Of a stretch of 40,000 bases of DNA, positions 4,916 to 38,127 are shown piece by piece. Numbering within the stretch: position 1 is the stretch's first letter; each line of letters starts with the position of its first letter. Where the stretch lies: contig CAZJHH010000008.1 in NCBI GenBank assembly GCA_964545875.1, positions 74,840 through 114,839 of the forward strand. The letters are read 5' to 3'. Made by a program: the position numbers and the translations under genes. The notes below the pieces were generated by a model. That model was not told the origin of the DNA, did no database searches, and saw nothing but the letters and a program-made list of their open reading frames with translations. Origin of the DNA: an uncultured Synergistaceae bacterium (lineage in GTDB: Bacteria > Synergistota > Synergistia > Synergistales > Aminiphilaceae).

Positions 4916-6430
4916 ATGAATCAGAAGGAAAGCGAACTGGTTCAGATCGCCGGTATTTGCAAAGACTTTTCCACCGTAAGGGTGCTTCACAACGTATCCT
5001 TCGCGGTCCGCTCCGGAGAAATTCTGGGCATTATCGGGGAAAACGGAGCCGGCAAGTCCACCCTGATGAAGATCTTGAGCGGTATCTACCAGCCTACTTC
5101 CGGGGAAATTTTCCTGGAGGGCAGGAAGGTGGATATCCGGAACCCCCTTGATGCGAAAAAACTGGGCATCAGCATCATCCCCCAGGAGTTCAACCTCGTG
5201 AACGATCTCACGGTGTACGATAACGTTTTTCTGGGGTCGGAGCTGCGTACAAAGAGGGGGTTTCTCGATAAGAAAACCATGAAAAAAAGAACCGCCGAGC
5301 TTCTGGAGGAGCTGGGAGTTTCCATCTCTCCCGAGGAGAGGATCGAAAACCTGAGCGCCGCGGAAAAACAGATGGTGGAGATCTGCAAGGCCCTGGCCTT
5401 CAAGTGCCGGATTCTCATTATGGATGAACCCACATCGGTGCTCACGCTGCATGAAATTGCCATCCTCTTTCGGCTGATGCGCCGGCTGAGAGCGGAGGGA
5501 ATGACCATTATCTACATCTCCCACAAACTGAAGGAGATCAAGGAGATATGCCATAGGGTTCTTGTTCTGCGGGACGGATATTTCGTGCTGGATAAACCCG
5601 TTTCGGAGGTCTCTCCCGAGGAGATGGCCCAGAGCATGGTGGGACGGGAGCTTTCCCAGATCTTTCCGAAAAAGGGTTCTCCTGAAGGGGTTCCCTTGCT
5701 GGAGGTTCGCCATCTTTCGGTACCCGGAGTGCTCAAGGATGTCAGCTTTACCCTGAAAAAGGGGGAGATCCTCGGTTTCGGGGGCCTTGTGGGGGCGGGA
5801 CGAACCGAAGTGGCGGAGACCCTTATAGGCCTGCGCTCCTTCTCCGAGGGGGAGATCCTTCTCAAAGGGCGCCCGCTGGAGATCCGAACTCCCCGGGATG
5901 CGGTACAGGCGGGGATAAGCTATCTCTCCGAGGATCGCCAGGGGAGCGGCATCCTCACGTCTTTCAGCGTGGTTCACAATACCACCCTCACCTCCCTGCC
6001 CCGGTATTCTTCTTCCCGAGTTCAATGGATCGACAAGAAAGAGGAGCTTGCGGCGGCTCAGCGTTACCGGGAGCTTTTCAATCTGAAAACGCCGTCTCTC
6101 GCTACTCCCCTGGAGTTTTTGAGCGGCGGCAACCAGCAGAAGGTATCCCTTTCGAAAAGTATCGACACGGAGCCGGTGGTGCTCATAGCGGACGAGCCCA
6201 CCCGGGGAGTGGACATCGCGGCCAAGCAGGAGGTCTACTCCTTCATCGGCCAGATTGTGGAGAGGGGCATTTCCTGCATCCTCATCTCTTCGGAGATGGA
6301 GGAGCTTATCGGTATGTGCCACCGGGTGGTGGTGATGCAGGATGGTCGCATTACGGGAATTCTTGAGGGAGAGCAGATCTGTGAGGAAGAAATAATGTTT
6401 TGCGCCACGGGTATAAGGGAGGGAGCCTGA
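4916..6430 (+). CDS. Sugar ABC transporter ATP-binding protein (tandem ATPase, RbsA/MglA type)
   Basis: 504 aa with two NBDs. Walker A GENGAGKST is present, with signature motifs LSAAEKQ and LSGGNQQK and Walker B ILIMDEPT and LIADEPT. Confidence 0.9.
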   Translation: MNQKESELVQIAGICKDFSTVRVLHNVSFAVRSGEILGIIGENGAGKSTLMKILSGIYQPTSGEIFLEGRKVDIRNPLDAKKLGISIIPQEFNLVNDLTVYDNVFLGSELRTKRGFLDKKTMKKRTAELLEELGVSISPEERIENLSAAEKQMVEICKALAFKCRILIMDEPTSVLTLHEIAILFRLMRRLRAEGMTIIYISHKLKEIKEICHRVLVLRDGYFVLDKPVSEVSPEEMAQSMVGRELSQIFPKKGSPEGVPLLEVRHLSVPGVLKDVSFTLKKGEILGFGGLVGAGRTEVAETLIGLRSFSEGEILLKGRPLEIRTPRDAVQAGISYLSEDRQGSGILTSFSVVHNTTLTSLPRYSSSRVQWIDKKEELAAAQRYRELFNLKTPSLATPLEFLSGGNQQKVSLSKSIDTEPVVLIADEPTRGVDIAAKQEVYSFIGQIVERGISCILISSEMEELIGMCHRVVVMQDGRITGILEGEQICEEEIMFCATGIREGA

Positions 6431-29341: not shown

Positions 29342-29482
29342 ATCCCAAGCTATACAATAAAAATGCTGTTTTTGCAACGCTTTTCGAGGTTTTTATTTTT
29401 CTTTGATTTGTATTGAATCGTATCGTGTTATACTTTTGCCTGACTCCAAATTGACTCCAAAAACTTTTTGGGAGGCGGCAAA

Positions 29483-30715
29483 GTGCAGATCAAACTTACG
29501 CAAACGCTGGTGCGGCAAACCGTAGCCGAGCCGGGAAAACGAGTGGAGCTGTGGGACACGGTTATACCCGGGCTGCATGTACGAGTGGGGAACCGCACCA
29601 AAAACTATTACCTGCGGTACTCAACCCCAAACGGCCCTCGCCGCAATGCGAAAATAGGTTCTGCGGAAGGGCTTACCCTTGCCCAGGTACGAGACATCGC
29701 TCGGAGTATTATCGGCGATGTGGCCAAGGGGGAAGATCCTGCGGCAAAGGCCCCGACAAAGGACATGCTATTACACAGATACCTCGAAGAGTATTATATC
29801 CCCTGGGTGGTAAAAAACAAAAAAGCCGGGCAGAATACGGCTATCATACTGCGTAATTTTATCGAGTTTTTCGAGCGCAACAAAATGATTTCCGATCTTT
29901 GCCGGCAGGATATAGAAGCGTGGCGGGAGGAAATGCGGACCCGTGGAAATAAGGCCGCCAGTATAAACCGCAAGTATGGCGCTCTGAGGGCGGCTCTTAA
30001 TTGGGGGGTGGAGATGGAGATCCTCCCCTATAACCCTCTGGTAAGCATGCGAGGAATAAAAACTCTGAAAGAAACGGACTCGGAAGAAAAAATCCGCTAC
30101 TTATCGGAAGAGGAAGAAGAGCGTCTTTACAGAGCCCTGAAAGAGCGGGACCTGGAAATTCGTCGGAAAAGACGGAAGCATAACGAATGGTGTTTTTCTC
30201 GGGGGAAAGATCCATGGCCAAACCTGGAGAATGGGGCTTATGCCGACAGCCTGGAACCCATGATTACTGTAAGTCTGAAAACCGGAGTCCGTCGTGGCAC
30301 ACTCTTTCATTTGGAATGGAAAGATGTGGATTTTGGTCATCAGGTGCTTACCGTGAGAGCTGAAATCTGTAAAACCGGAAAATCCCGAAAAATCCCGTTA
30401 AGCCCTACAGCCCTCAAAACTTTGGAAAAGTGGAAAGAGCAGCAAGGCGGAAAAGGGCTTGTTTTCCCCTCACCGAAAACGGGAGGCGTGATGGATAACT
30501 GCAATTCCGCCTGGACAGCCTTGCTAAGGGCTGCGGATATAGAGGGGTTCCGGTGGCACGACCTCAGGCATACTTTTGCAAGTAGGCTGGTGATAAACGG
30601 TGCAGATTTAAATGTGGTCAGGGAATTGCTTGGGCATAGCGACCTCAAAATGACATTGCGCTATGCCCATCTGGCTCCCAATATGAAAAGCAGGACGATA
30701 GAGTTGTTGGGGTAG
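29483..30715 (+). CDS. int: Tyrosine recombinase / phage integrase (P4-like, N-terminal arm-binding DUF4102-type domain)
   Basis: GTG at 29483 lies 7 nt after GGAGG. The N-terminal GKRVELWDTVIPGLHVRVGNRTKNYYLRY is arm-type. The C-terminal catalytic motifs are WHDLRHTFAS and LGHSDLKMTLRYAH (R-H-R-Y). Confidence 0.9.
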   Translation: MQIKLTQTLVRQTVAEPGKRVELWDTVIPGLHVRVGNRTKNYYLRYSTPNGPRRNAKIGSAEGLTLAQVRDIARSIIGDVAKGEDPAAKAPTKDMLLHRYLEEYYIPWVVKNKKAGQNTAIILRNFIEFFERNKMISDLCRQDIEAWREEMRTRGNKAASINRKYGALRAALNWGVEMEILPYNPLVSMRGIKTLKETDSEEKIRYLSEEEEERLYRALKERDLEIRRKRRKHNEWCFSRGKDPWPNLENGAYADSLEPMITVSLKTGVRRGTLFHLEWKDVDFGHQVLTVRAEICKTGKSRKIPLSPTALKTLEKWKEQQGGKGLVFPSPKTGGVMDNCNSAWTALLRAADIEGFRWHDLRHTFASRLVINGADLNVVRELLGHSDLKMTLRYAHLAPNMKSRTIELLG

Positions 30716-31167: not shown

Positions 31168-31635
31168 CTAATTTTCTTCGCCGCCTTTCCTTACAGACAA
31201 ATTAAATAATATGAAAAAGTCTATCAAAATTAAGGCAAGGCTATTCATGACAAGGGCAAGTAAGATTTTAAGAATAAGGCAGGAAAATGCGGAATTAGAT
31301 AATAGCAAGATAGAAAGAATAAAGGAGAGGGCTAAATAAATGGCGGTAAGGATTAACATGAATTTGTATAAAGAAAGATAGCCAAGCTTTTCGTATCGTT
31401 TCCTGTTGTAATTGGGAGATAGAGAAAATAGTATGGACGCTATGGTAAGCAAAAAACCTAAAAATGTGGAAGAATAGCTTGAAATTATATGCGCAATGCT
31501 TTCTTTAGCGCTGAAAAGGCTGAAAGCGTATTTGGTATTTGCAAAAATTATTTGATAAACACCCCAAAAAAAGAGGCCAGGAAGTAAAGAAAGTACAAAA
31601 ATTATTTTTTTCGATAAACATTTGTTATTTTCCAT
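31168..31635 (-). CDS. RexB-like small four-helix membrane protein (hypothetical)
   Basis: 155 aa with four hydrophobic segments (about aa 11-32, 47-72, 86-112, 116-146). The start overlaps the upstream gene by 11 nt, and a GAAGG SD is present. Size and topology resemble lambda RexB (144 aa, 4 TM). No sequence motif was recognised. Confidence 0.55.
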   Translation of the reverse strand: MENNKCLSKKIIFVLSLLPGLFFWGVYQIIFANTKYAFSLFSAKESIAHIISSYSSTFLGFLLTIASILFSLSPNYNRKRYEKLGYLSLYKFMLILTAIYLALSFILSILLLSNSAFSCLILKILLALVMNSLALILIDFFILFNLSVRKGGEEN

Positions 31636-32575
31636 TGCGCTTAACCTTCAATTTTTTTTGGAACATTTTATTGAACTGTGTTGGGGGAGTTTTTTCGAAT
31701 GCATCTGTTTCAAACTCACTTAGCTTTTTCTCTAAGATTTTGTTTTTATAAAGTCTTTCGGTGATAACTTTATCTACTGCTGGGATGCTGAGTGTTGGTA
31801 TATTCTTCAGTTTGTCTGACACTTTCCCTTGACCAATTACATAAAGATCTGAAAGGATTGGCTGAAGTTCTTGTTTTGCTTGAGCTACAAATTTTACTGT
31901 TTCAGTGTCAATGTGTGTAGCCACATTTGTCACTGTTTTTTTTATGGATTTATTTCGTAAGGGTTTTATTGTCACTTCAATAGAACTTATATTGTCATCG
32001 GTTGCATTCCCTCCTATAAATTCCATGAGAGCCTTACCAAGGGAACCTCTTGAAGAGGCTTCCATTGTTGTTTTTCCAATGAAATCCATAGAAAGAAGTT
32101 CGTTTTTTCCCACACGGTTTATAAGGGGAGTTAGTATTAATTTGTATTTTCTTGAAGAAGAGAATTTTTTTTCAAAATATTGATTGATTAGATCTCCAAG
32201 TAGGGTAATTCTTGGTGATAACATCCTATTTACAAAAGCGATGCAATGAGGTTTTCCAGTATAGAAAAAAGAGGCGAATCCAAGTTCTTCGTTTTCGCTT
32301 AGTTTTGTAGTGATATCTTGTACTGTGACTGTAGATGCATCAATGGCTTTGATTATTTCATTGTTTTTTGTGACAACTAGTAAAAAAGTGTTTTTTTGAC
32401 GAGGGAAATCATCGCTGAAAATGTAGATATGCTCTCCGTTAATCATAAATTTTCTTCGAAACTCTTTTTTTTCCGATAAAAAACAATCTATGATTTTGTT
32501 TATATTAATTAAATATCGATTTTCGCCATCAGGTGTTTCTTCAGAAAGAGAATACGCAGTATAGCATACTCGCAA
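31625..32575 (-). CDS. RexA-like protein (hypothetical phage-exclusion sensor)
   Basis: 316 aa, soluble. A TTG start lies 7 nt after GGGAGGG. The blocks EELGFASFFY, MDFIGKTT and EVTIKPLRNKSIKK resemble lambda RexA blocks ESLGFPSFLF, HFIGRTT and IVIKPKFKRDIKK. The lambda sequence is recalled from memory and not verified. The gene is on the same strand as the CI-like repressor and downstream of it. Confidence 0.6.
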   Translation of the reverse strand: MRVCYTAYSLSEETPDGENRYLININKIIDCFLSEKKEFRRKFMINGEHIYIFSDDFPRQKNTFLLVVTKNNEIIKAIDASTVTVQDITTKLSENEELGFASFFYTGKPHCIAFVNRMLSPRITLLGDLINQYFEKKFSSSRKYKLILTPLINRVGKNELLSMDFIGKTTMEASSRGSLGKALMEFIGGNATDDNISSIEVTIKPLRNKSIKKTVTNVATHIDTETVKFVAQAKQELQPILSDLYVIGQGKVSDKLKNIPTLSIPAVDKVITERLYKNKILEKKLSEFETDAFEKTPPTQFNKMFQKKLKVKRNGK

Positions 32576-32798: not shown

Positions 32799-33518
32799 CT
32801 ATTTTGATGTACTAATTATTTCTAAGCTCCCATCCCTACTAATCAATATTTCCTTTCCCGATTCTTTCAGATCTGGGCTGATTTGCAATACCAGAGATGT
32901 AATTTTTTGCCCTAACCGTGTCTTTTCCTGCTCAAGTTCGCCGATGGTCTTGAGATACTCTTGATTGGTGGTATGGCGAGCGATGGTGGTGCAGAAGAAT
33001 GTCGCTACGAGCATGCCGAGAACGAAAGCGATAAGAGGGGAGCGTAATTTTTTCATGAAAGTCAACTTTTTGCGCCAAGAGTTTTCCGCTATATGTACAT
33101 GGGGCTCTAAAGGAAGATTTTTAAGAATTTTTCCCCACTGTTCTTGTAGGAATTTTTTTGTGCATTCTCCTTGGTACCAAGTTGCTAAAATTTCTCCCTG
33201 AACTTTTTGAAAAAATCTTATTCTCTTGAGCTCGGGGTCTATTGCTTTTCTAGCGAGAAATGCAATAAAAAAAATCATAAAACCGGATACTATTACTCCA
33301 GCCCAGGTATTGTAAATACTAAAAGTGGATTGGGATGTATTGAGTACAAACAATATAGTTGGGAAACATCCTGCCATTATTATCGAAAGGCCAGTCCATT
33401 TTATGCTATTGGTGCTTTCGTATTTTTGCTCTATTTTTTGATTTATAAATAACAATATTTTTTGAACTTCTTCTTCGGTAGAAAGAAGAGGTGGTTTGCT
33501 TTTGTCTGATTGGATCAT
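32799..33518 (-). CDS. Hypothetical 3-TM membrane protein with C-terminal coiled coil
   Basis: 239 aa with hydrophobic segments at about aa 41-60, 72-89 and 161-180. The heptad-like segment EYLKTIGELEQEKTRLGQKITSL is present. The gene is AT-rich. A TATAAT on the minus strand at 33553-33558 suggests its own promoter. No family was recognised. Confidence 0.65.
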   Translation of the reverse strand: MIQSDKSKPPLLSTEEEVQKILLFINQKIEQKYESTNSIKWTGLSIIMAGCFPTILFVLNTSQSTFSIYNTWAGVIVSGFMIFFIAFLARKAIDPELKRIRFFQKVQGEILATWYQGECTKKFLQEQWGKILKNLPLEPHVHIAENSWRKKLTFMKKLRSPLIAFVLGMLVATFFCTTIARHTTNQEYLKTIGELEQEKTRLGQKITSLVLQISPDLKESGKEILISRDGSLEIISTSK

Positions 33519-33722
33519 TTGTAGTTACGCCTTCCCATTATTTTTCTTTCGCATTATATCTCTTGCCATGTTTTTTAAATTTAAAAATGAGCTTTTTTTA
33601 TCTTCTACGGCTTTTAAAATATTTCACCAATCGGCTGTAGTCCAGGTTTCAACGCTTTTCCCATAACTATCCCGTTTCAACCCACACTCTCATGAAAGAA
33701 CCACGTCTGTTCCTGCTGCCTC

Positions 33723-34451
33723 TTACCACAAGCGTCCTGCTGGTTTCGGCTTCGGGACGATATACAAAACTAACCCCACGATATAGAAGTCGTCTCCTTC
33801 CCTCACCTCCCTTGCCATATAACCCTCGTTTACCGGGCGTAACATCAAGTCTCCGTTCCGCCTATCGATGGCACGCACGAAAAGGCGGTCGTCATGTAAT
33901 ACCACCGCAAACTGCCCATCGGAAACATCGACTCCATGGACGAATAACACGTGATCTCCATCGTTGATTCTGGGAGACATGCTGTCTCCTTCAACCTGGA
34001 TGATCTTGAAGTCTCGCGATTGCCAGGAATAGCCGTCCAGGTCTTTTTTTGCGATCGGCATGGGGATCGTGCTATCCACCTCCCATTCGATACTGTCAGG
34101 ATACATGTTCCCGTTTCCGCAACAAGCCTTTGCCCCGGAGACCACCGGGACAAGCATCATTTTTTTATCCACGTCCACGCCGATTTTCGAGAGATCGGGG
34201 TGGGCTTTTTCATTTTTGAAGGGTGCCGGGTCGTCGGTTTCGCCTGTTAAAAAATCCAGGGGGACTCCCAGAAGCTCTTCTATTTGCTTGGCTGTTCCAT
34301 ACGAAACGCCGGCCTTGCCATTTAAGACATTAGACACATGTTTTTGCGTGATTCCAATAGCTTCAGCAATGTCTTTATTTTTGATGTCTTTTTGTCGCAT
34401 TATATTTCTTGCTCTGTCTTTCTTGAAAACAAGCTTTTTCTCATCTTCCAT
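33723..34451 (-). CDS. CI/LexA-like phage repressor (XRE-type HTH plus S24 peptidase-like domain)
   Basis: The N-terminal HTH is IKNKDIAEAIGITQKHVSNVLNGK. The C-terminal part is an S24 fold (VEGDSMSPRINDGDHVLF...LRPVN). Confidence 0.85.
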   Translation of the reverse strand: MEDEKKLVFKKDRARNIMRQKDIKNKDIAEAIGITQKHVSNVLNGKAGVSYGTAKQIEELLGVPLDFLTGETDDPAPFKNEKAHPDLSKIGVDVDKKMMLVPVVSGAKACCGNGNMYPDSIEWEVDSTIPMPIAKKDLDGYSWQSRDFKIIQVEGDSMSPRINDGDHVLFVHGVDVSDGQFAVVLHDDRLFVRAIDRRNGDLMLRPVNEGYMAREVREGDDFYIVGLVLYIVPKPKPAGRLW

Positions 34452-34477
34452 TTGTCCACCCCTCCCTTCTTTTTCTC

Positions 34478-34600
34478 CATAACCTACAAGGTAAAGCCGT
34501 GTTTCCGCAAAGTCAATCCACAGGGAGTTCTCAAAAATAACCTAAAAGGTTTATTTTGAGTCTTTAGGCCCATTGCGTATAATTACCTATCGGGTTATAT
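34478..34600. promoter_or_regulatory. Divergent switch region with three operator-like sites and a rightward promoter
   Basis: The sites are ATAACCTacaAGGTAAA (core 34482-34492), ATAACCTaaaAGGTTTA (34540-34550) and ATTACCTatcGGGTTAT (34585-34595). A TTGAGT-16 nt-TATAAT promoter (-10 at 34578-34583) lies between sites 2 and 3. Confidence 0.45.
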
Positions 34601-34626
34601 TTTTGATGCGGAAAGGAGGTGGCACA

Positions 34627-34863
34627 GTGAAACTGATTGATTTAGATGAAAAAATGAGGGGCTTTGAGGTGAAAAACATTGATATTGCTAAGGATTTAAG
34701 CGTTACAGAAAAAGCAGTATCTCAATGGAGGCGAGGGCGGGTATTCCCCTCTGACAACGCAATAAGTTACCTGTTAGGTAAATTTGGCGCTTTAAAAGTT
34801 GAGACGGATTCCGGGGAAATTTTTGTTATGAGCGAAAACCCTACCACCCCCGCCCCGGAGTAG
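34627..34863 (+). CDS. Cro-like small HTH protein
   Basis: GTG at 34627 lies 7 nt after GGAGG, giving 78 aa. IDIAKDLSVTEKAVSQWRRG is an HTH-like segment. The gene is divergent from the repressor. Confidence 0.6.
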   Translation: MKLIDLDEKMRGFEVKNIDIAKDLSVTEKAVSQWRRGRVFPSDNAISYLLGKFGALKVETDSGEIFVMSENPTTPAPE

Positions 34864-35123
34864 CGGCATTACCCCAGGGCGGGGAGGAGCAAAGCATCCT
34901 GGGGGCTGTCAACACGGTATCCCGATTTGTTGCAAGCCTCCAAGCCTTGGCCGCCACGTGCGACGAAGCAGGCGAAATAGCGGCAATCACCATGGATGTG
35001 GCGGCGGACGGAAAGCTCAGCGGAGAAGGCACGGTTACGCTCCGGTCAAGGTACAACGAAGCACGCGCGGCGTTTCTGGATCTTGGGGAATTGATTGGAA
35101 CGTAGGGAAGGGGATGTAAAAAA

Positions 35124-35285
35124 ATGCACGATAAAAAGGCCCCCATGAGGGAGCAAAAAGTAGGTGTTCCGCTCGTGGAGGAACCGTATTCCTTCCTCTC
35201 CGAATGCAGACGACGGGTTCTTGCTGTAAACATGGCCACCAGGAAAGACGGTACTTTTGAGTTTTCCTTGAAGCCTAAGGCATGA
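35124..35285 (+). CDS. Hypothetical small protein (53 aa)
   Basis: An ATG follows a GGAAGGGG SD. It is below the ORF-track length cutoff. Its 3' end overlaps the convergent gene by 11 nt. No homology was recognised. Confidence 0.25.
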   Translation: MHDKKAPMREQKVGVPLVEEPYSFLSECRRRVLAVNMATRKDGTFEFSLKPKA

Positions 35286-35520
35286 ATTTCCCCAAAAGAA
35301 GTGGAACCAGGGTTTCCTTGATGGCGGGATGTAGCAGGGTAAGCGCAGTAATAACTGCGAAGAGGGCAAATATGCTGAGGTTGGCGCGAGTGAGTTTCTC
35401 CCGAAGTTCTTTTATTTCTGATTGCAACAGCTGGATATTTTCTTTGTGAGACTCGCTCTCTGCTCCTAGCCTCCCAATAAGAAGAGAAGCTTCATCTAGG
35501 GAAATCAGTTCTTTTGACAT
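35275..35520 (-). CDS. Hypothetical coiled-coil protein with C-terminal TM anchor
   Basis: 81 aa. The coiled-coil segment is ENIQLLQSEIKELREKLTRA, followed by the hydrophobic LSIFALFAVITALTLL. The start is 2 nt after the upstream gene stop, suggesting translational coupling. Confidence 0.5.
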   Translation of the reverse strand: MSKELISLDEASLLIGRLGAESESHKENIQLLQSEIKELREKLTRANLSIFALFAVITALTLLHPAIKETLVPLLLGKFMP

Positions 35521-35522
35521 GG

Positions 35523-35861
35523 TCAGTTAACCTCATCAAGACTTTTCACTTTTGCGGAGAGATTCTTGAGAAGAATATCTGATTGACGAAGCTGCTCTTT
35601 TATCTCGTCTTCAGCATCCTTGTCTACTACGGGCTCTTCGAATGCTTGTCTGGTCAGGCCTCTTTTTTGAGCGGCATCGACCTCCATAAAGGAAATCATT
35701 CCACATTCGGGACACGAAATCATAGCAATAGGCTTAAAGGCGGACCCCCATCGCATCATTGCTACATGTTTACCGTCATCTTCTGAAGGAATTATATAGG
35801 TGCCGGCAAGGGTATAGTGCTTGATTTCTTCGTGTGAACAATACGGACAAACGTAAGCCAT
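35523..35861 (-). CDS. Hypothetical zinc-ribbon protein
   Basis: 112 aa. CPYC (aa 5-8) and CPEC (aa 50-53) form a 4-Cys ribbon. The C-terminus is acidic and coiled. A GGAGG SD is present. Confidence 0.6.
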   Translation of the reverse strand: MAYVCPYCSHEEIKHYTLAGTYIIPSEDDGKHVAMMRWGSAFKPIAMISCPECGMISFMEVDAAQKRGLTRQAFEEPVVDKDAEDEIKEQLRQSDILLKNLSAKVKSLDEVN

Positions 35862-36012
35862 AGCAAATAACCTCCAATATTAGTTTATGAATATTTTAGC
35901 ACACAGTTGTTTTTACGGACCTGCGGGGAAAATATTTGGAGGCCTGGGAAGCTCTTCTCGGGATTGGAGATTTAATTAAAAAATAGAGTTCTTTAGGGTT
36001 CCGAAGTCTAAA

Positions 36013-36681
36013 TCAGATAGCACACGCTTCTAAAAAAGCTAATCCTAAGGGAGTTAAGCGGAAAGACTCAGATTCTTCTACGTCTAAACTAATCATGTCC
36101 ATGACTAATGGCTCTGTTTTATTGATGCCTTTAATGATTCTCAGCCTTTTTAAGTTTTCCAGACTAATGATTAAAGATTCTTCGTTTATTTCTGAATTTT
36201 CTGGGGCCATTAAAAAATCGGAGTGTTCGAATTCACGTTTGTTGTTTTGAGAGCAATATTGAAGAAGCCGAGCTTCCAAAGGTTCTAAGGATTTGATTAT
36301 GTCGATAAAAGCCATACGAATTTTGGATTCTTCAAAGTTGGGGTCCAGTGCATTGGCAAGGAGTTTAGCCCAAAGTTTTTGAAGATCGGGGTCTGTTTCC
36401 AGAGAAGCGGGAGGAATAAACACATAGCCCATTTTGGCACTCATCTCTCGGCAGAGGTTGGGGTCATGAATCCCTCTTTTTTGAAGCACTTCGCTTGTTG
36501 CTTTACAAATATCAATAAGAGAATGAGTTTTTTCAACGGCTTCTTCAACAGGACCTTTTGAGAAAAATTTTTTAATTGAAGAAGAGCATTTTTCTAGAAC
36601 TCCTTGTGTTAGGAGTGTGACTGGAACAGCGGTTACGGCTGCAGTGGCGGAGCTGACTATTACGGGAAGTATTTCAGACAT
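36013..36681 (-). CDS. Abi-alpha / DUF4393-like protein (putative abortive-infection family)
   Basis: 222 aa. IPPASLETDPDLQKLWAKLLANALDP followed by FIDIIKSLEPLEARLLQY matches my recollection of the Abi_alpha/DUF4393 core (PP...L..lfanLLa.a.d...hp.F..il.qLsp.EA.lL). Not verified by search. Confidence 0.55.
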   Translation of the reverse strand: MSEILPVIVSSATAAVTAVPVTLLTQGVLEKCSSSIKKFFSKGPVEEAVEKTHSLIDICKATSEVLQKRGIHDPNLCREMSAKMGYVFIPPASLETDPDLQKLWAKLLANALDPNFEESKIRMAFIDIIKSLEPLEARLLQYCSQNNKREFEHSDFLMAPENSEINEESLIISLENLKRLRIIKGINKTEPLVMDMISLDVEESESFRLTPLGLAFLEACAI

Positions 36682-36712
36682 AAAATCAAATCCTTTCTTT
36701 GGGGGTTTTTAG

Positions 36713-37015
36713 ATGAAAAACTTCTTTGTTCGAATGACTGCTACGCTTTTCATTCTTATTGTTTTTGCAGTTTTGATTCCTCTTCACCTACTTATCATAA
36801 CACTCTGTTTTGTTCCTTGCGTAATAAACGAGCTCCTCTTATATACGGCACGGAAAATTTGGTTTTGTTGTTTTGCACCGAGGCTCATTATTGCAGAGAT
36901 CGATGGTTTGCCAATTCCCAAAACGGAAGAAGCACTTTACAAGCATTTTTTTGTAGTTACAGGTATTAAAAAAATGCAAGAAAGCTTGGAGAAAATCATA
37001 TGCCAAAAATCGTAA
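36713..37015 (+). CDS. Hypothetical small membrane protein
   Basis: 100 aa with two hydrophobic segments. The SD is weak, and only 31 nt separate it from the divergent gene. Confidence 0.35.
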   Translation: MKNFFVRMTATLFILIVFAVLIPLHLLIITLCFVPCVINELLLYTARKIWFCCFAPRLIIAEIDGLPIPKTEEALYKHFFVVTGIKKMQESLEKIICQKS

Positions 37016-37127
37016 CTTTATCATTTTTTGGGAATTTGACTGGGGTATAGCCGATTGGGGGCCTTGAAAACAAAGTAGCGACAATGCGCTAACCGTACTC
37101 GAATCAAGCACGGAAAGGAGGAAAACA

Positions 37128-37562
37128 GTGTCGAAAGCAAACGTGGTGCCTTTCGAACGTCCCCAGGAACAGCTGGGTTTGGATGGAATCATCGGCATGC
37201 TGGTGCAGCAAACCATAGCCAGCCTGCTCGCTGAAATCGATATAGAAAAAGCCTTCCGGGAGGCAATGAAAGAGGTTATTGCCGAAAAGATGCAGCAAAA
37301 AAAGCTGGAAATGGATTATTTGATGGACACGGAAGAAGTGGCCCAGATGATCAGAATGAGTAAGGCCTATCTCGATAAGGCCAGAAGCCAGGGAACCCGG
37401 GGGGGATCCCGTCCTGCTCCGAAAAACGTGGAGGTTGGCAGCAGAGCGTTGTACAAGGCTTCAACAGTACAGCGGTGGATCAAAACGCTACCGGAATATG
37501 GCGGAGAGGAAGCTCCGGTATATAAGAACCAAAAGATAAAAAAGGAGTGTGTAATGCAATGA
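37128..37562 (+). CDS. Phage DNA-binding protein with AlpA/excisionase-type (MerR-superfamily) HTH
   Basis: GTG at 37128 follows an AAGGAGG SD. The segment MDTEEVAQMIRMSKAYLDKARSQG...ALYKASTVQRWI resembles HTH_17/AlpA-type excisionase-regulators. Confidence 0.55.
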   Translation: MSKANVVPFERPQEQLGLDGIIGMLVQQTIASLLAEIDIEKAFREAMKEVIAEKMQQKKLEMDYLMDTEEVAQMIRMSKAYLDKARSQGTRGGSRPAPKNVEVGSRALYKASTVQRWIKTLPEYGGEEAPVYKNQKIKKECVMQ

Positions 37563-37702
37563 AGGCAATGTGGTTGATCCTTGCGGTATGTGGCTGTATG
37601 GGGGGCGTCTGGGGAATTCTGCGGATAGCGGCGGATATTCACGCGGATCGTTGTACTCGTAATCACAAGGGTGTTTCCCGGAAGGGGAGGATCACGGCAT
37701 GA
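37559..37702 (+). CDS. Candidate 47-aa membrane peptide
   Basis: The ATG overlaps the upstream stop (ATGA). The peptide is MKAMWLILAVCGCMGGVWGILRIAADIH..., with one hydrophobic helix. It is below the ORF-track cutoff. Confidence 0.3.
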   Translation: MKAMWLILAVCGCMGGVWGILRIAADIHADRCTRNHKGVSRKGRITA

Positions 37703-37788
37703 GCAAATTGCAGTTTTTGACGGTGGTTGCGGTTTTGGTGTTGCACTTGTATGCCATGGTGATTTCTGCGCGCAGTTGGGAGCGGTAA
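37699..37788 (+). CDS. Candidate 29-aa membrane peptide
   Basis: It has an ATGA overlap with the previous candidate and a GGGGAGG SD 8 nt upstream. The peptide is MSKLQFLTVVAVLVLHLYAMVISARSWER. Confidence 0.25.
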   Translation: MSKLQFLTVVAVLVLHLYAMVISARSWER

Positions 37789-37884
37789 CGATGAAGCTTT
37801 TCAGGCGACGGTGCAAACTAGGCGTCCGTCGAAAGATTTGGACCCTAAAAACTGGAAAACTTGATTACGCAAGGAGATGAGACG

Positions 37885-38127
37885 ATGAAAAATTTTCTGC
37901 AAATGATTTTTGGTTTTTTCCGTAAAAAAAGTGAGCCTCAGCCTTCTTCCGCTCTCTTTTCCCATGGCGGCAATACGAACACCATGAGCCGGACAGCGGA
38001 AGACCTCGAGCTATTGATCGGAGCCGCATGTGATGGAGACCGTATGTGGCAGGGGCTGCGCGGAGCCGTCACCATCGGAGGTATCCAACGGCTGCGGAGC
38101 ATGGCGGACAGGCTGGGAGCGGCGTGA
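37885..38127 (+). CDS. Hypothetical phage protein
   Basis: ATG at 37885 follows an AGGAG SD, giving 80 aa. No family was recognised. Confidence 0.45.
   Translation: MKNFLQMIFGFFRKKSEPQPSSALFSHGGNTNTMSRTAEDLELLIGAACDGDRMWQGLRGAVTIGGIQRLRSMADRLGAA

Follow-up and report, generated by a model that had tools for sequence, protein, structure and literature searches.

We analyzed a 40,000-nucleotide stretch of contig CAZJHH010000008.1 (hereafter the window), the right end of which is the prophage of a temperate phage whose host probably belongs to the Synergistota. The subject is a block of three genes within this prophage, which encode a 222-amino-acid protein of the AbiAlpha family, a 112-amino-acid zinc-ribbon protein, and an 81-amino-acid coiled-coil-like protein with a transmembrane segment (CC-TM protein). 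A first-pass annotation of the window had described them as a leftward cargo operon of lower GC (guanine plus cytosine) content, transcribed against the early genes, and as a possible defense system of a kind not previously described. Its observation holds: the three minus-strand open reading frames (ORFs), their coordinates and sizes, and the 2-nucleotide gap between the last two are confirmed, as is the position of the block. GC content is 0.396, 0.442, and 0.455 for the AbiAlpha, zinc-ribbon, and CC-TM genes, respectively, compared with ~0.51 in both the phage backbone and the host. The block is transcribed in the direction of the repressor gene, opposite to the lytic early operon, and a cargo (moron-like) nature of its genes is supported. 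We conclude that the block probably consists of two independently mobile accessory (moron) modules, stacked in an early-region island that is oriented with the repressor. The features of the block and its flanks are as follows.

35275-36681, minus strand: three-gene block, between a cro-like gene and the rightward early genes
35275-35520, minus strand: CC-TM gene, 81 amino acids, coiled-coil-like with a C-terminal transmembrane anchor; starts 2 nucleotides past the zinc-ribbon stop codon
35523-35861, minus strand: gene for a four-cysteine zinc-ribbon protein, 112 amino acids, with a long C-terminal helix; rare Synergistota-prophage family
35862-35976, minus strand: 115-nucleotide leader of the zinc-ribbon gene, kept in an Abi-less sister prophage, where it lies inside a 94%-identical block (35316-35976)
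35966-35976, plus strand: left imperfect 11-bp direct repeat at the cassette junction, GGAGATTTAAT
35977-37029, no strand: 1,053-bp cassette (GC 0.376) with the AbiAlpha gene and a 100-amino-acid ORF; an indel relative to the sister prophage
36013-36681, minus strand: AbiAlpha-family gene, 222 amino acids (Pfam PF14337), a single-gene abortive-infection candidate
36713-37015, plus strand: candidate divergent ORF, 100 amino acids, with a hydrophobic N-terminus resembling two transmembrane segments; 31 nucleotides from the AbiAlpha start
37030-37040, plus strand: right imperfect 11-bp direct repeat at the cassette junction, GGGAATTTGAC

The AbiAlpha gene and its cassette

Judged by its sequence, the 222-amino-acid protein clearly belongs to AbiAlpha, a known single-gene family of which it is a new and divergent member. 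Its residues 64-220 align to positions 12-196 of the 196-position profile Pfam PF14337 (Abi_alpha, formerly DUF4393), scoring 75.4 bits (E=7.8e-21) where the gathering score is 29; an identical protein (P0002) carries a precomputed assignment to PF14337. The motifs by which the first-pass annotation had recognized the family (IPP...LQKLWAKLLANALDP...FIDIIKSLEPLEARLLQY) are present in the translation, and three PADLOC PDC-S47 models match with partial coverage (E=3.1e-10, 1.3e-8, and 1.9e-6). An ALDPNF motif is invariant across the alignment of its subfamily, and the closest relatives found share at most 41% identity with the window protein. The genes of these relatives stand by themselves in the early or immunity regions of prophages.

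The family had been said to take its name from a lactococcal abortive-infection protein, which is incorrect: the founder is ef2833 from prophage 6 of Enterococcus faecalis V583 (Lossouarn 2019, PMC6356687). Cloned alone with its own promoter, ef2833 blocks phage Idefix, with an efficiency of plating below 1e-8; adsorption is normal, the efficiency of center of infection is ~10%, and the cells die, with lysis ~10 minutes early (PMC6356687). Within the family, an abortive-infection phenotype is on record only for ef2833. AbiAlpha is listed as an Abi subtype in defense-system surveys and is the second most common defense system in cultured phage genomes (64 genomes). In Staphylococcus aureus phiNM1 lysogens, a DUF4393 protein accounts for 42% of prophage protein, the largest share of any.

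The window gene resembles the founder in having a domain above the gathering score, in being prophage-borne, in forming a single-gene mobile unit, and in lying in or near the immunity-early region, as other family members do. It differs in length (222 versus 272 amino acids), in belonging to the divergent ALDPNF subfamily, and in its host, which is probably a member of the Synergistota rather than the Firmicutes. Its cassette also adds a small divergent transmembrane ORF. By analogy with its relatives, the gene would be expressed from a promoter of its own in the lysogen, and infection by a second phage would trigger premature lysis or death, so that the intruder yields little progeny. A consensus scan places a promoter-like site, a candidate for the AbiAlpha promoter, on the minus strand at 36914-36887, inside the 100-amino-acid ORF. 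This copy extends a widespread family into prophages whose zinc-ribbon relatives are found only in Synergistota.

Structure adds little for this protein. Its AlphaFold2 (AF2) model reaches a predicted local distance difference test (pLDDT) score of only 52.6 and was left out of the fold search; only the C-terminal half (residues ~123-221) attains pLDDT ~70-77, with a helix-helix-helix-strand-strand order reminiscent of a winged helix, in a model too weak to interpret. Profile searches of Protein Data Bank (PDB) sequences returned nothing for either the AbiAlpha or the zinc-ribbon family. The hydrophobic N-terminus (residues 3-25) was considered as a family membrane anchor and rejected, being unconserved in the subfamily. 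At a related locus (L013, 5234-7455; comparison loci carry L numbers throughout), an AbiAlpha homolog starts right after the stop codon of a repressor-like helix-turn-helix (HTH) gene, which suggests that the two may be co-transcribed in the lysogen. Next come a DUF3800 gene and an integrase gene.

The cassette boundaries are evident from comparison with two loci of the sister prophage, L009 and L010. In blastn comparisons, both loci lack the cassette and align with its flanks at 93-94%; a single copy of the repeat, GGGAATTTGAT, marks the empty site in L010. The sister also carries ~750 bp of other cargo (L009 7084-7830; L010 2940-3686) with ORFs of 72 and 66 amino acids, where the window has none (~37089-37097). 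This other cargo adjoins the empty cassette site and is thus further evidence for an accessory-gene hotspot.

Gene prediction calls the divergent ORF of the cassette on every contig. The ORF has a hydrophobic segment at residues 2-46, and searches of Pfam, PHROGs, NCBIfam, and PADLOC assign it to no family. It may be a spurious T-rich ORF that merely overlies the AbiAlpha promoter, or it could be a holin-like partner of AbiAlpha. Divergent small hydrophobic ORFs (74-108 amino acids) lie beside AbiAlpha in four of eight lineages, the equivalents being at L018 6547-6867, L012 5747-5971, and L023 5525-5851, all on the minus strand. The start-to-start gap is ~31 nucleotides in the window, L018, and L012; the AbiAlpha start in L023 is undefined. 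Sequence comparison detects no similarity among the four ORFs (E=0.39). A weaker variant of the defense reading would have this AbiAlpha subfamily work with the divergent holin-like ORF, with its two transmembrane segments, from the same cassette.

Two modules compared across sister phages

The first-pass annotation had treated the three genes as one system, with AbiAlpha as its sensor. We find that AbiAlpha and the zinc-ribbon/CC-TM pair are separable in sister phages. The exact 222-amino-acid protein occurs on 23 contigs, and each of the eight places shown is a copy of this prophage with unchanged neighbors. Outside the identical copies of this prophage, the complete trio was not found; every other lineage has one of the two modules or a rearranged set of two of the three genes. 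Three sister-phage comparisons separate its parts. Between the window and L009/L010, the block at 35316-35976 is 94% identical and covers the CC-TM gene, the zinc-ribbon gene, and its 115-nucleotide leader; the window has both AbiAlpha and the zinc ribbon, while L009/L010 have the zinc ribbon without AbiAlpha.

The second comparison involves L018-L020, whose zinc ribbon is 31% identical to that of the window. There, an AbiAlpha gene of the same subfamily (36% identity, E=8e-31) lies ~570 bp downstream of the zinc-ribbon gene. The two genes of L018 lie in the opposite order to those of the window and are separated by two ORFs on the other strand; the CC-TM gene is deleted. Its sister L022, an IMG/VR contig whose zinc ribbon closely resembles Dpep_0043, is 83% identical to L018 over the AlpA-like and zinc-ribbon genes. 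L022 carries the zinc ribbon with a 64-amino-acid CC-TM partner and no AbiAlpha, whereas L018 has AbiAlpha and a zinc ribbon that has lost its partner. In the third comparison, L011 and L027 (Pyramidobacter) share 97% identity across the DnaB and HTH_36 genes; L011 has AbiAlpha without the zinc ribbon, and L027 has the zinc ribbon with its partner and no AbiAlpha. In L011, the pair has been replaced by other cargo.

The wider distribution agrees. The pair occurs without AbiAlpha in five lineages, including L015-L017 and L030, and the AbiAlpha profile has no match even at E<=10 in the zinc-ribbon-bearing loci L009, L010, L015, L021, L022, and L027-L030. Conversely, ~18 loci of the AbiAlpha subfamily lack the zinc ribbon. 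It is missing from the AbiAlpha loci L011-L014, L023-L026, and L031-L043, and AbiAlpha stands alone in L011-L013 and L023-L043. On genomic evidence, AbiAlpha behaves as a stand-alone gene that was gained or lost by itself in all three sister-phage comparisons. Since loci with both modules, with the zinc ribbon only, and with AbiAlpha only all occur among close relatives, the modules assort independently. The changed order and the deleted membrane partner in L018 fit a shared insertion hotspot better than an operon. Thus, what brings the two modules together would be an accessory-gene hotspot at this spot rather than a need for each other. Neighboring genes in a single prophage can mimic a multi-gene defense system; sister-phage comparison resolves the case here into a known Abi gene and a separate module.

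A single three-gene defense system, with AbiAlpha as sensor, the zinc ribbon as adaptor, and the membrane protein as effector, is consequently very improbable. It would account for three contiguous genes on one strand, with no strong terminator after AbiAlpha, for the recurrence of a same-subfamily AbiAlpha near a zinc-ribbon homolog in L018-L020, and for the premature lysis of the Abi-alpha phenotype, which could involve a membrane partner. Against it stand the confinement of the trio to one prophage, the independent assortment, the rearranged L018 locus, the many AbiAlpha loci without a zinc ribbon, and the sufficiency of ef2833 alone. The AbiAlpha identity and the protein architectures given by the first-pass annotation therefore stand, as does its remark that this arrangement is not a described system, but the single system does not.

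The second module is itself a unit. We show that the zinc-ribbon and CC-TM genes form a conserved and rare two-gene unit, so far seen only in Synergistota prophages. The CC-TM gene is translationally coupled to the zinc-ribbon gene across their 2-nucleotide gap, and a partner of the same architecture and position is found in seven of eight zinc-ribbon lineages (same-architecture partners were seen in L015, L021, L022, L027, and L030). The spacing from zinc-ribbon gene to partner is 2, 4, 5, 1, or 5 nucleotides, or an 11-nucleotide overlap. The 81-amino-acid protein has a helical, coiled-coil-like N-terminal half and, as had been predicted, a C-terminal membrane anchor, formed by its one hydrophobic segment (residues 45-68); in the partners, the transmembrane segment often has an (H/N)P..L..L tail. 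Wherever a genetic switch is visible, the pair is oriented with the repressor and against the early operon. All three ORFs of the block are real genes and not chance ORFs, as follows from the Abi profile match, the ratio of nonsynonymous to synonymous polymorphism (pN/pS) of the zinc ribbon, and the recurrence of the partner in seven of eight lineages.

The zinc-ribbon protein is under purifying selection, with pN/pS of 0.17 (window versus L010) and 0.14 (L018 versus L022). The CPYC and CPEC knuckles noticed in the first-pass annotation are present in the translation, and every homolog found has kept their four cysteines (C5, C8, C50, and C53). The AF2 model (pLDDT 79.8) shows a three-stranded sheet and a C-terminal helix at residues 81-111. 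The family is very small: a word-index search of 5.8 billion clusters returned one relative (96% identity), exhaustive phmmer of 1.84 billion representatives returned four real clusters, and a profile search returned seven clusters (90% identity). Two members carry names, Dpep_0043 of Dethiosulfovibrio peptidovorans and a protein from a Pyramidobacter porci metagenome-assembled genome; both hosts belong to the Dethiosulfovibrionaceae, phylum Synergistota. In searches of cultured phages, tblastn found nothing at E<=0.01 for the zinc ribbon and only chance hits (E>=2) for the CC-TM proteins. The leader of the zinc-ribbon gene holds a candidate extended -10 element, TGCTAAAAT (35901-35893), and a ribosome-binding site, GGAGG (35875-35871), both read by eye; a consensus scan picked up neither.

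Several results weigh against the reading of two separate modules, one of them a coherent pair. No convincing intrinsic terminator lies between AbiAlpha and the zinc-ribbon gene, where there is only a weak hairpin (z-score 0.1); thus, the three genes are possibly co-transcribed by read-through in this prophage. AbiAlpha lies less than 1 kb from the zinc-ribbon gene in two of seven assessable lineages, as against ~1% in cultured temperate phages. This rate is not clearly above the frequency of AbiAlpha within the phage group (three of ~9 lineages), and the insertion sites differ. As regards the pair, pairwise BLAST among the small partners gives no significant similarity, so that their homology rests on architecture and position. 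The zinc-ribbon and CC-TM proteins have no Pfam, PADLOC, or PHROG family and no significant structural neighbors.

Possible roles of the zinc-ribbon/CC-TM pair

The pair, which is very rare, conserved in position, and unannotated, is the only part of the block with potential novelty. Our best guess, drawn from gene content and sequence, is that it may act at the membrane as a module expressed in the lysogen, with an exclusion or toxin-antitoxin-like function. This is suggested by its orientation with the repressor, by the conservation of the leader in the Abi-less sister, by its lower GC content, by its replacement with other cargo in L011, and by the neighboring defense genes. The pair would be expressed in the lysogen while PR is repressed, and the cytoplasmic zinc ribbon might form a membrane-tethered complex with the tail-anchored protein and its cytoplasmic coiled coil. 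The membrane protein could then be the effector, through membrane perturbation or exclusion, and the zinc ribbon its sensor or neutralizer, in a logic like that of RexAB or of toxin-antitoxin systems. In its specific form, the proposal is an undescribed two-gene prophage module that guards the lysogen through abortive infection or superinfection exclusion, its small membrane effector being restrained or triggered by the zinc ribbon; the module would tend to share one hotspot with AbiAlpha and would so far be confined to Synergistota phages. In this form the proposal is tentative and less likely than not. If a defense or toxin function is true, the pair would be a small and tractable new system; otherwise, it is another accessory gene pair.

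The logic proposed for the pair resembles that of lambda RexA/RexB, with a cytoplasmic and a small membrane protein oriented with the repressor. The pair is not homologous to RexA/RexB at the level of PADLOC searches, which gave no match at E<=1 for the window proteins and none at E<=0.1 for three partner homologs. Its membrane protein also has one transmembrane segment rather than four. A genuine RexAB-like pair lies elsewhere in the same prophage (31168-32575).

A function in phage development is possible but doubtful; the pair would then be an XhlA-like accessory of lysis timing, an envelope effector, or a regulator of the lysis-lysogeny decision. In the last version, transcription could run leftward to cro and CI, as it does from lambda PRE. 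The position of the pair beside the genetic switch, conserved in at least six lineages, would suit such a function, and three of six partners have weak XhlA or "hemolysin" matches (E 0.013 to 0.062), made up of Pfam XhlA (E=0.062), phrog_1193 in two of six, and phrog_937 in one of six. XhlA, a small membrane protein that works together with the PBSX holin, shares with the partners its small size, N-terminal coiled coil, and C-terminal transmembrane segment. However, the likeness is architectural only: the best XhlA (PF10779) match of the family, in L027, scores 13.9 bits against a gathering score of 34.7, and the window protein has no XhlA match. The pair also adjoins early and immunity genes rather than a holin or endolysin, lies outside any lysis cassette, and combines its membrane protein with a zinc ribbon.

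The fold of the zinc ribbon bears on the same question. Foldseek found only generic ribbons (best E=0.21 in PDB and 0.049 in BFVD), and these non-significant neighbors are nucleic-acid-binding ribbons such as NrdR, RPA12, and InsA, as might be expected of a regulator. Their matches, too, are far below family thresholds. The lower GC content of the pair and its replacement in L011 are the behavior of a dispensable accessory and not of a core regulator.

An addiction module, in which the tail-anchored protein is the toxin and the upstream zinc ribbon the antitoxin, seems unlikely. The antitoxin-first gene order and the tight translational coupling are conserved, as such a module would require. 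In L018, the partner has been lost, with 177 bp in L022 (6341-6518) reduced to 30 bp (6341-6371), and the zinc-ribbon gene is kept under constraint (pN/pS 0.14). A zinc ribbon retained without its partner is the pattern that would be expected of an orphan antitoxin, or of a protein with its own function. In L010 (4470-6706), an IS21-like element (an IstB-type ATPase and a transposase) sits in the 3' end of the CC-TM gene and has replaced the C-terminal tail. This suggests that the CC-TM gene is dispensable in L010, and the disruption by the insertion sequence (IS) is equally compatible with any dispensable function.

Sub-threshold matches of the zinc ribbon to YgiT/MqsA-type fingers (NCBIfam E=0.03; BFVD MqsA E=0.45) would also fit an antitoxin; however, they are non-significant, and the protein lacks the HTH or other DNA-binding domain typical of type II antitoxins. 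Every Pfam and NCBIfam zinc-ribbon family scores below its cut-off for this protein: IS1595 at 22.8 versus 25.4 bits, Lar_restr_allev at 13.4 versus 28.6, YgiT/MqsA at 14.6 versus 20.2, and ECs_2282 at 17.3 versus 37. The MqsA/YgiT and Lar/IS1595 ribbons are likewise small CxxC...CxxC ribbons of phages and prophages. They differ from the window family, to which a long C-terminal helix and an obligate transmembrane partner are specific; in addition, the window protein lacks the HTH domain of MqsA and the transposase of IS1595. In L030, a DUF3800 gene and an M78 peptidase gene lie near the zinc-ribbon pair.

The surrounding prophage

The other features of the prophage are listed below; a blastn search of 33000-38000 against 50,697 cultured phages gave zero matches.

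29468-30715, plus strand: integrase
31168-31635, minus strand: RexB-like protein, 155 amino acids, four transmembrane segments (PADLOC RexB E=3.2e-12)
31625-32575, minus strand: RexA-like protein (PADLOC RexA E=7.8e-48; Pfam PF15969 E=4.6e-42)
32799-33518, minus strand: 239-amino-acid protein, three transmembrane segments, coiled-coil-like C-terminal tail; its gene lies immediately downstream of the CI repressor gene
33723-34451, minus strand: CI-like repressor (HTH_3 and Peptidase_S24), in the same orientation as the block
34573-34863, plus strand: cro-like HTH gene, convergent with the block (weak P22_Cro and PHROG transcription-regulator matches)
34947-35285, plus strand: two small ORFs of 52 and 53 amino acids
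35139-35154, minus strand: terminator-like hairpin followed by a T-run (GCTCCCTCATGGGGGC then CTTTTTAT), ~120 nucleotides downstream of the 81-amino-acid gene; consensus match only
37128 onward, plus strand: early genes (HTH_17-like, YfdP-like, SSB, HTH_36, and IstB/DnaA-like)

The hairpin at 35139-35154 likely ends the leftward unit. It is overlapped, together with the end of the 81-amino-acid gene, by the 53-amino-acid plus-strand ORF, which is a candidate ORF. The region between the cro-like gene and the leftward block (34864-35285) has a high GC content of 0.555. The RexA-like and RexB-like genes overlap each other, have a GC content of ~0.33, and adjoin the integrase gene. This one prophage thus holds both RexAB-like and AbiAlpha genes, a combination that, according to an INPHARED survey preprint, has never been seen in cultured phages. 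The 239-amino-acid protein has no Pfam, PHROGs, or PADLOC family; its gene has a low GC content (0.376) and is a candidate accessory gene expressed in the lysogen.

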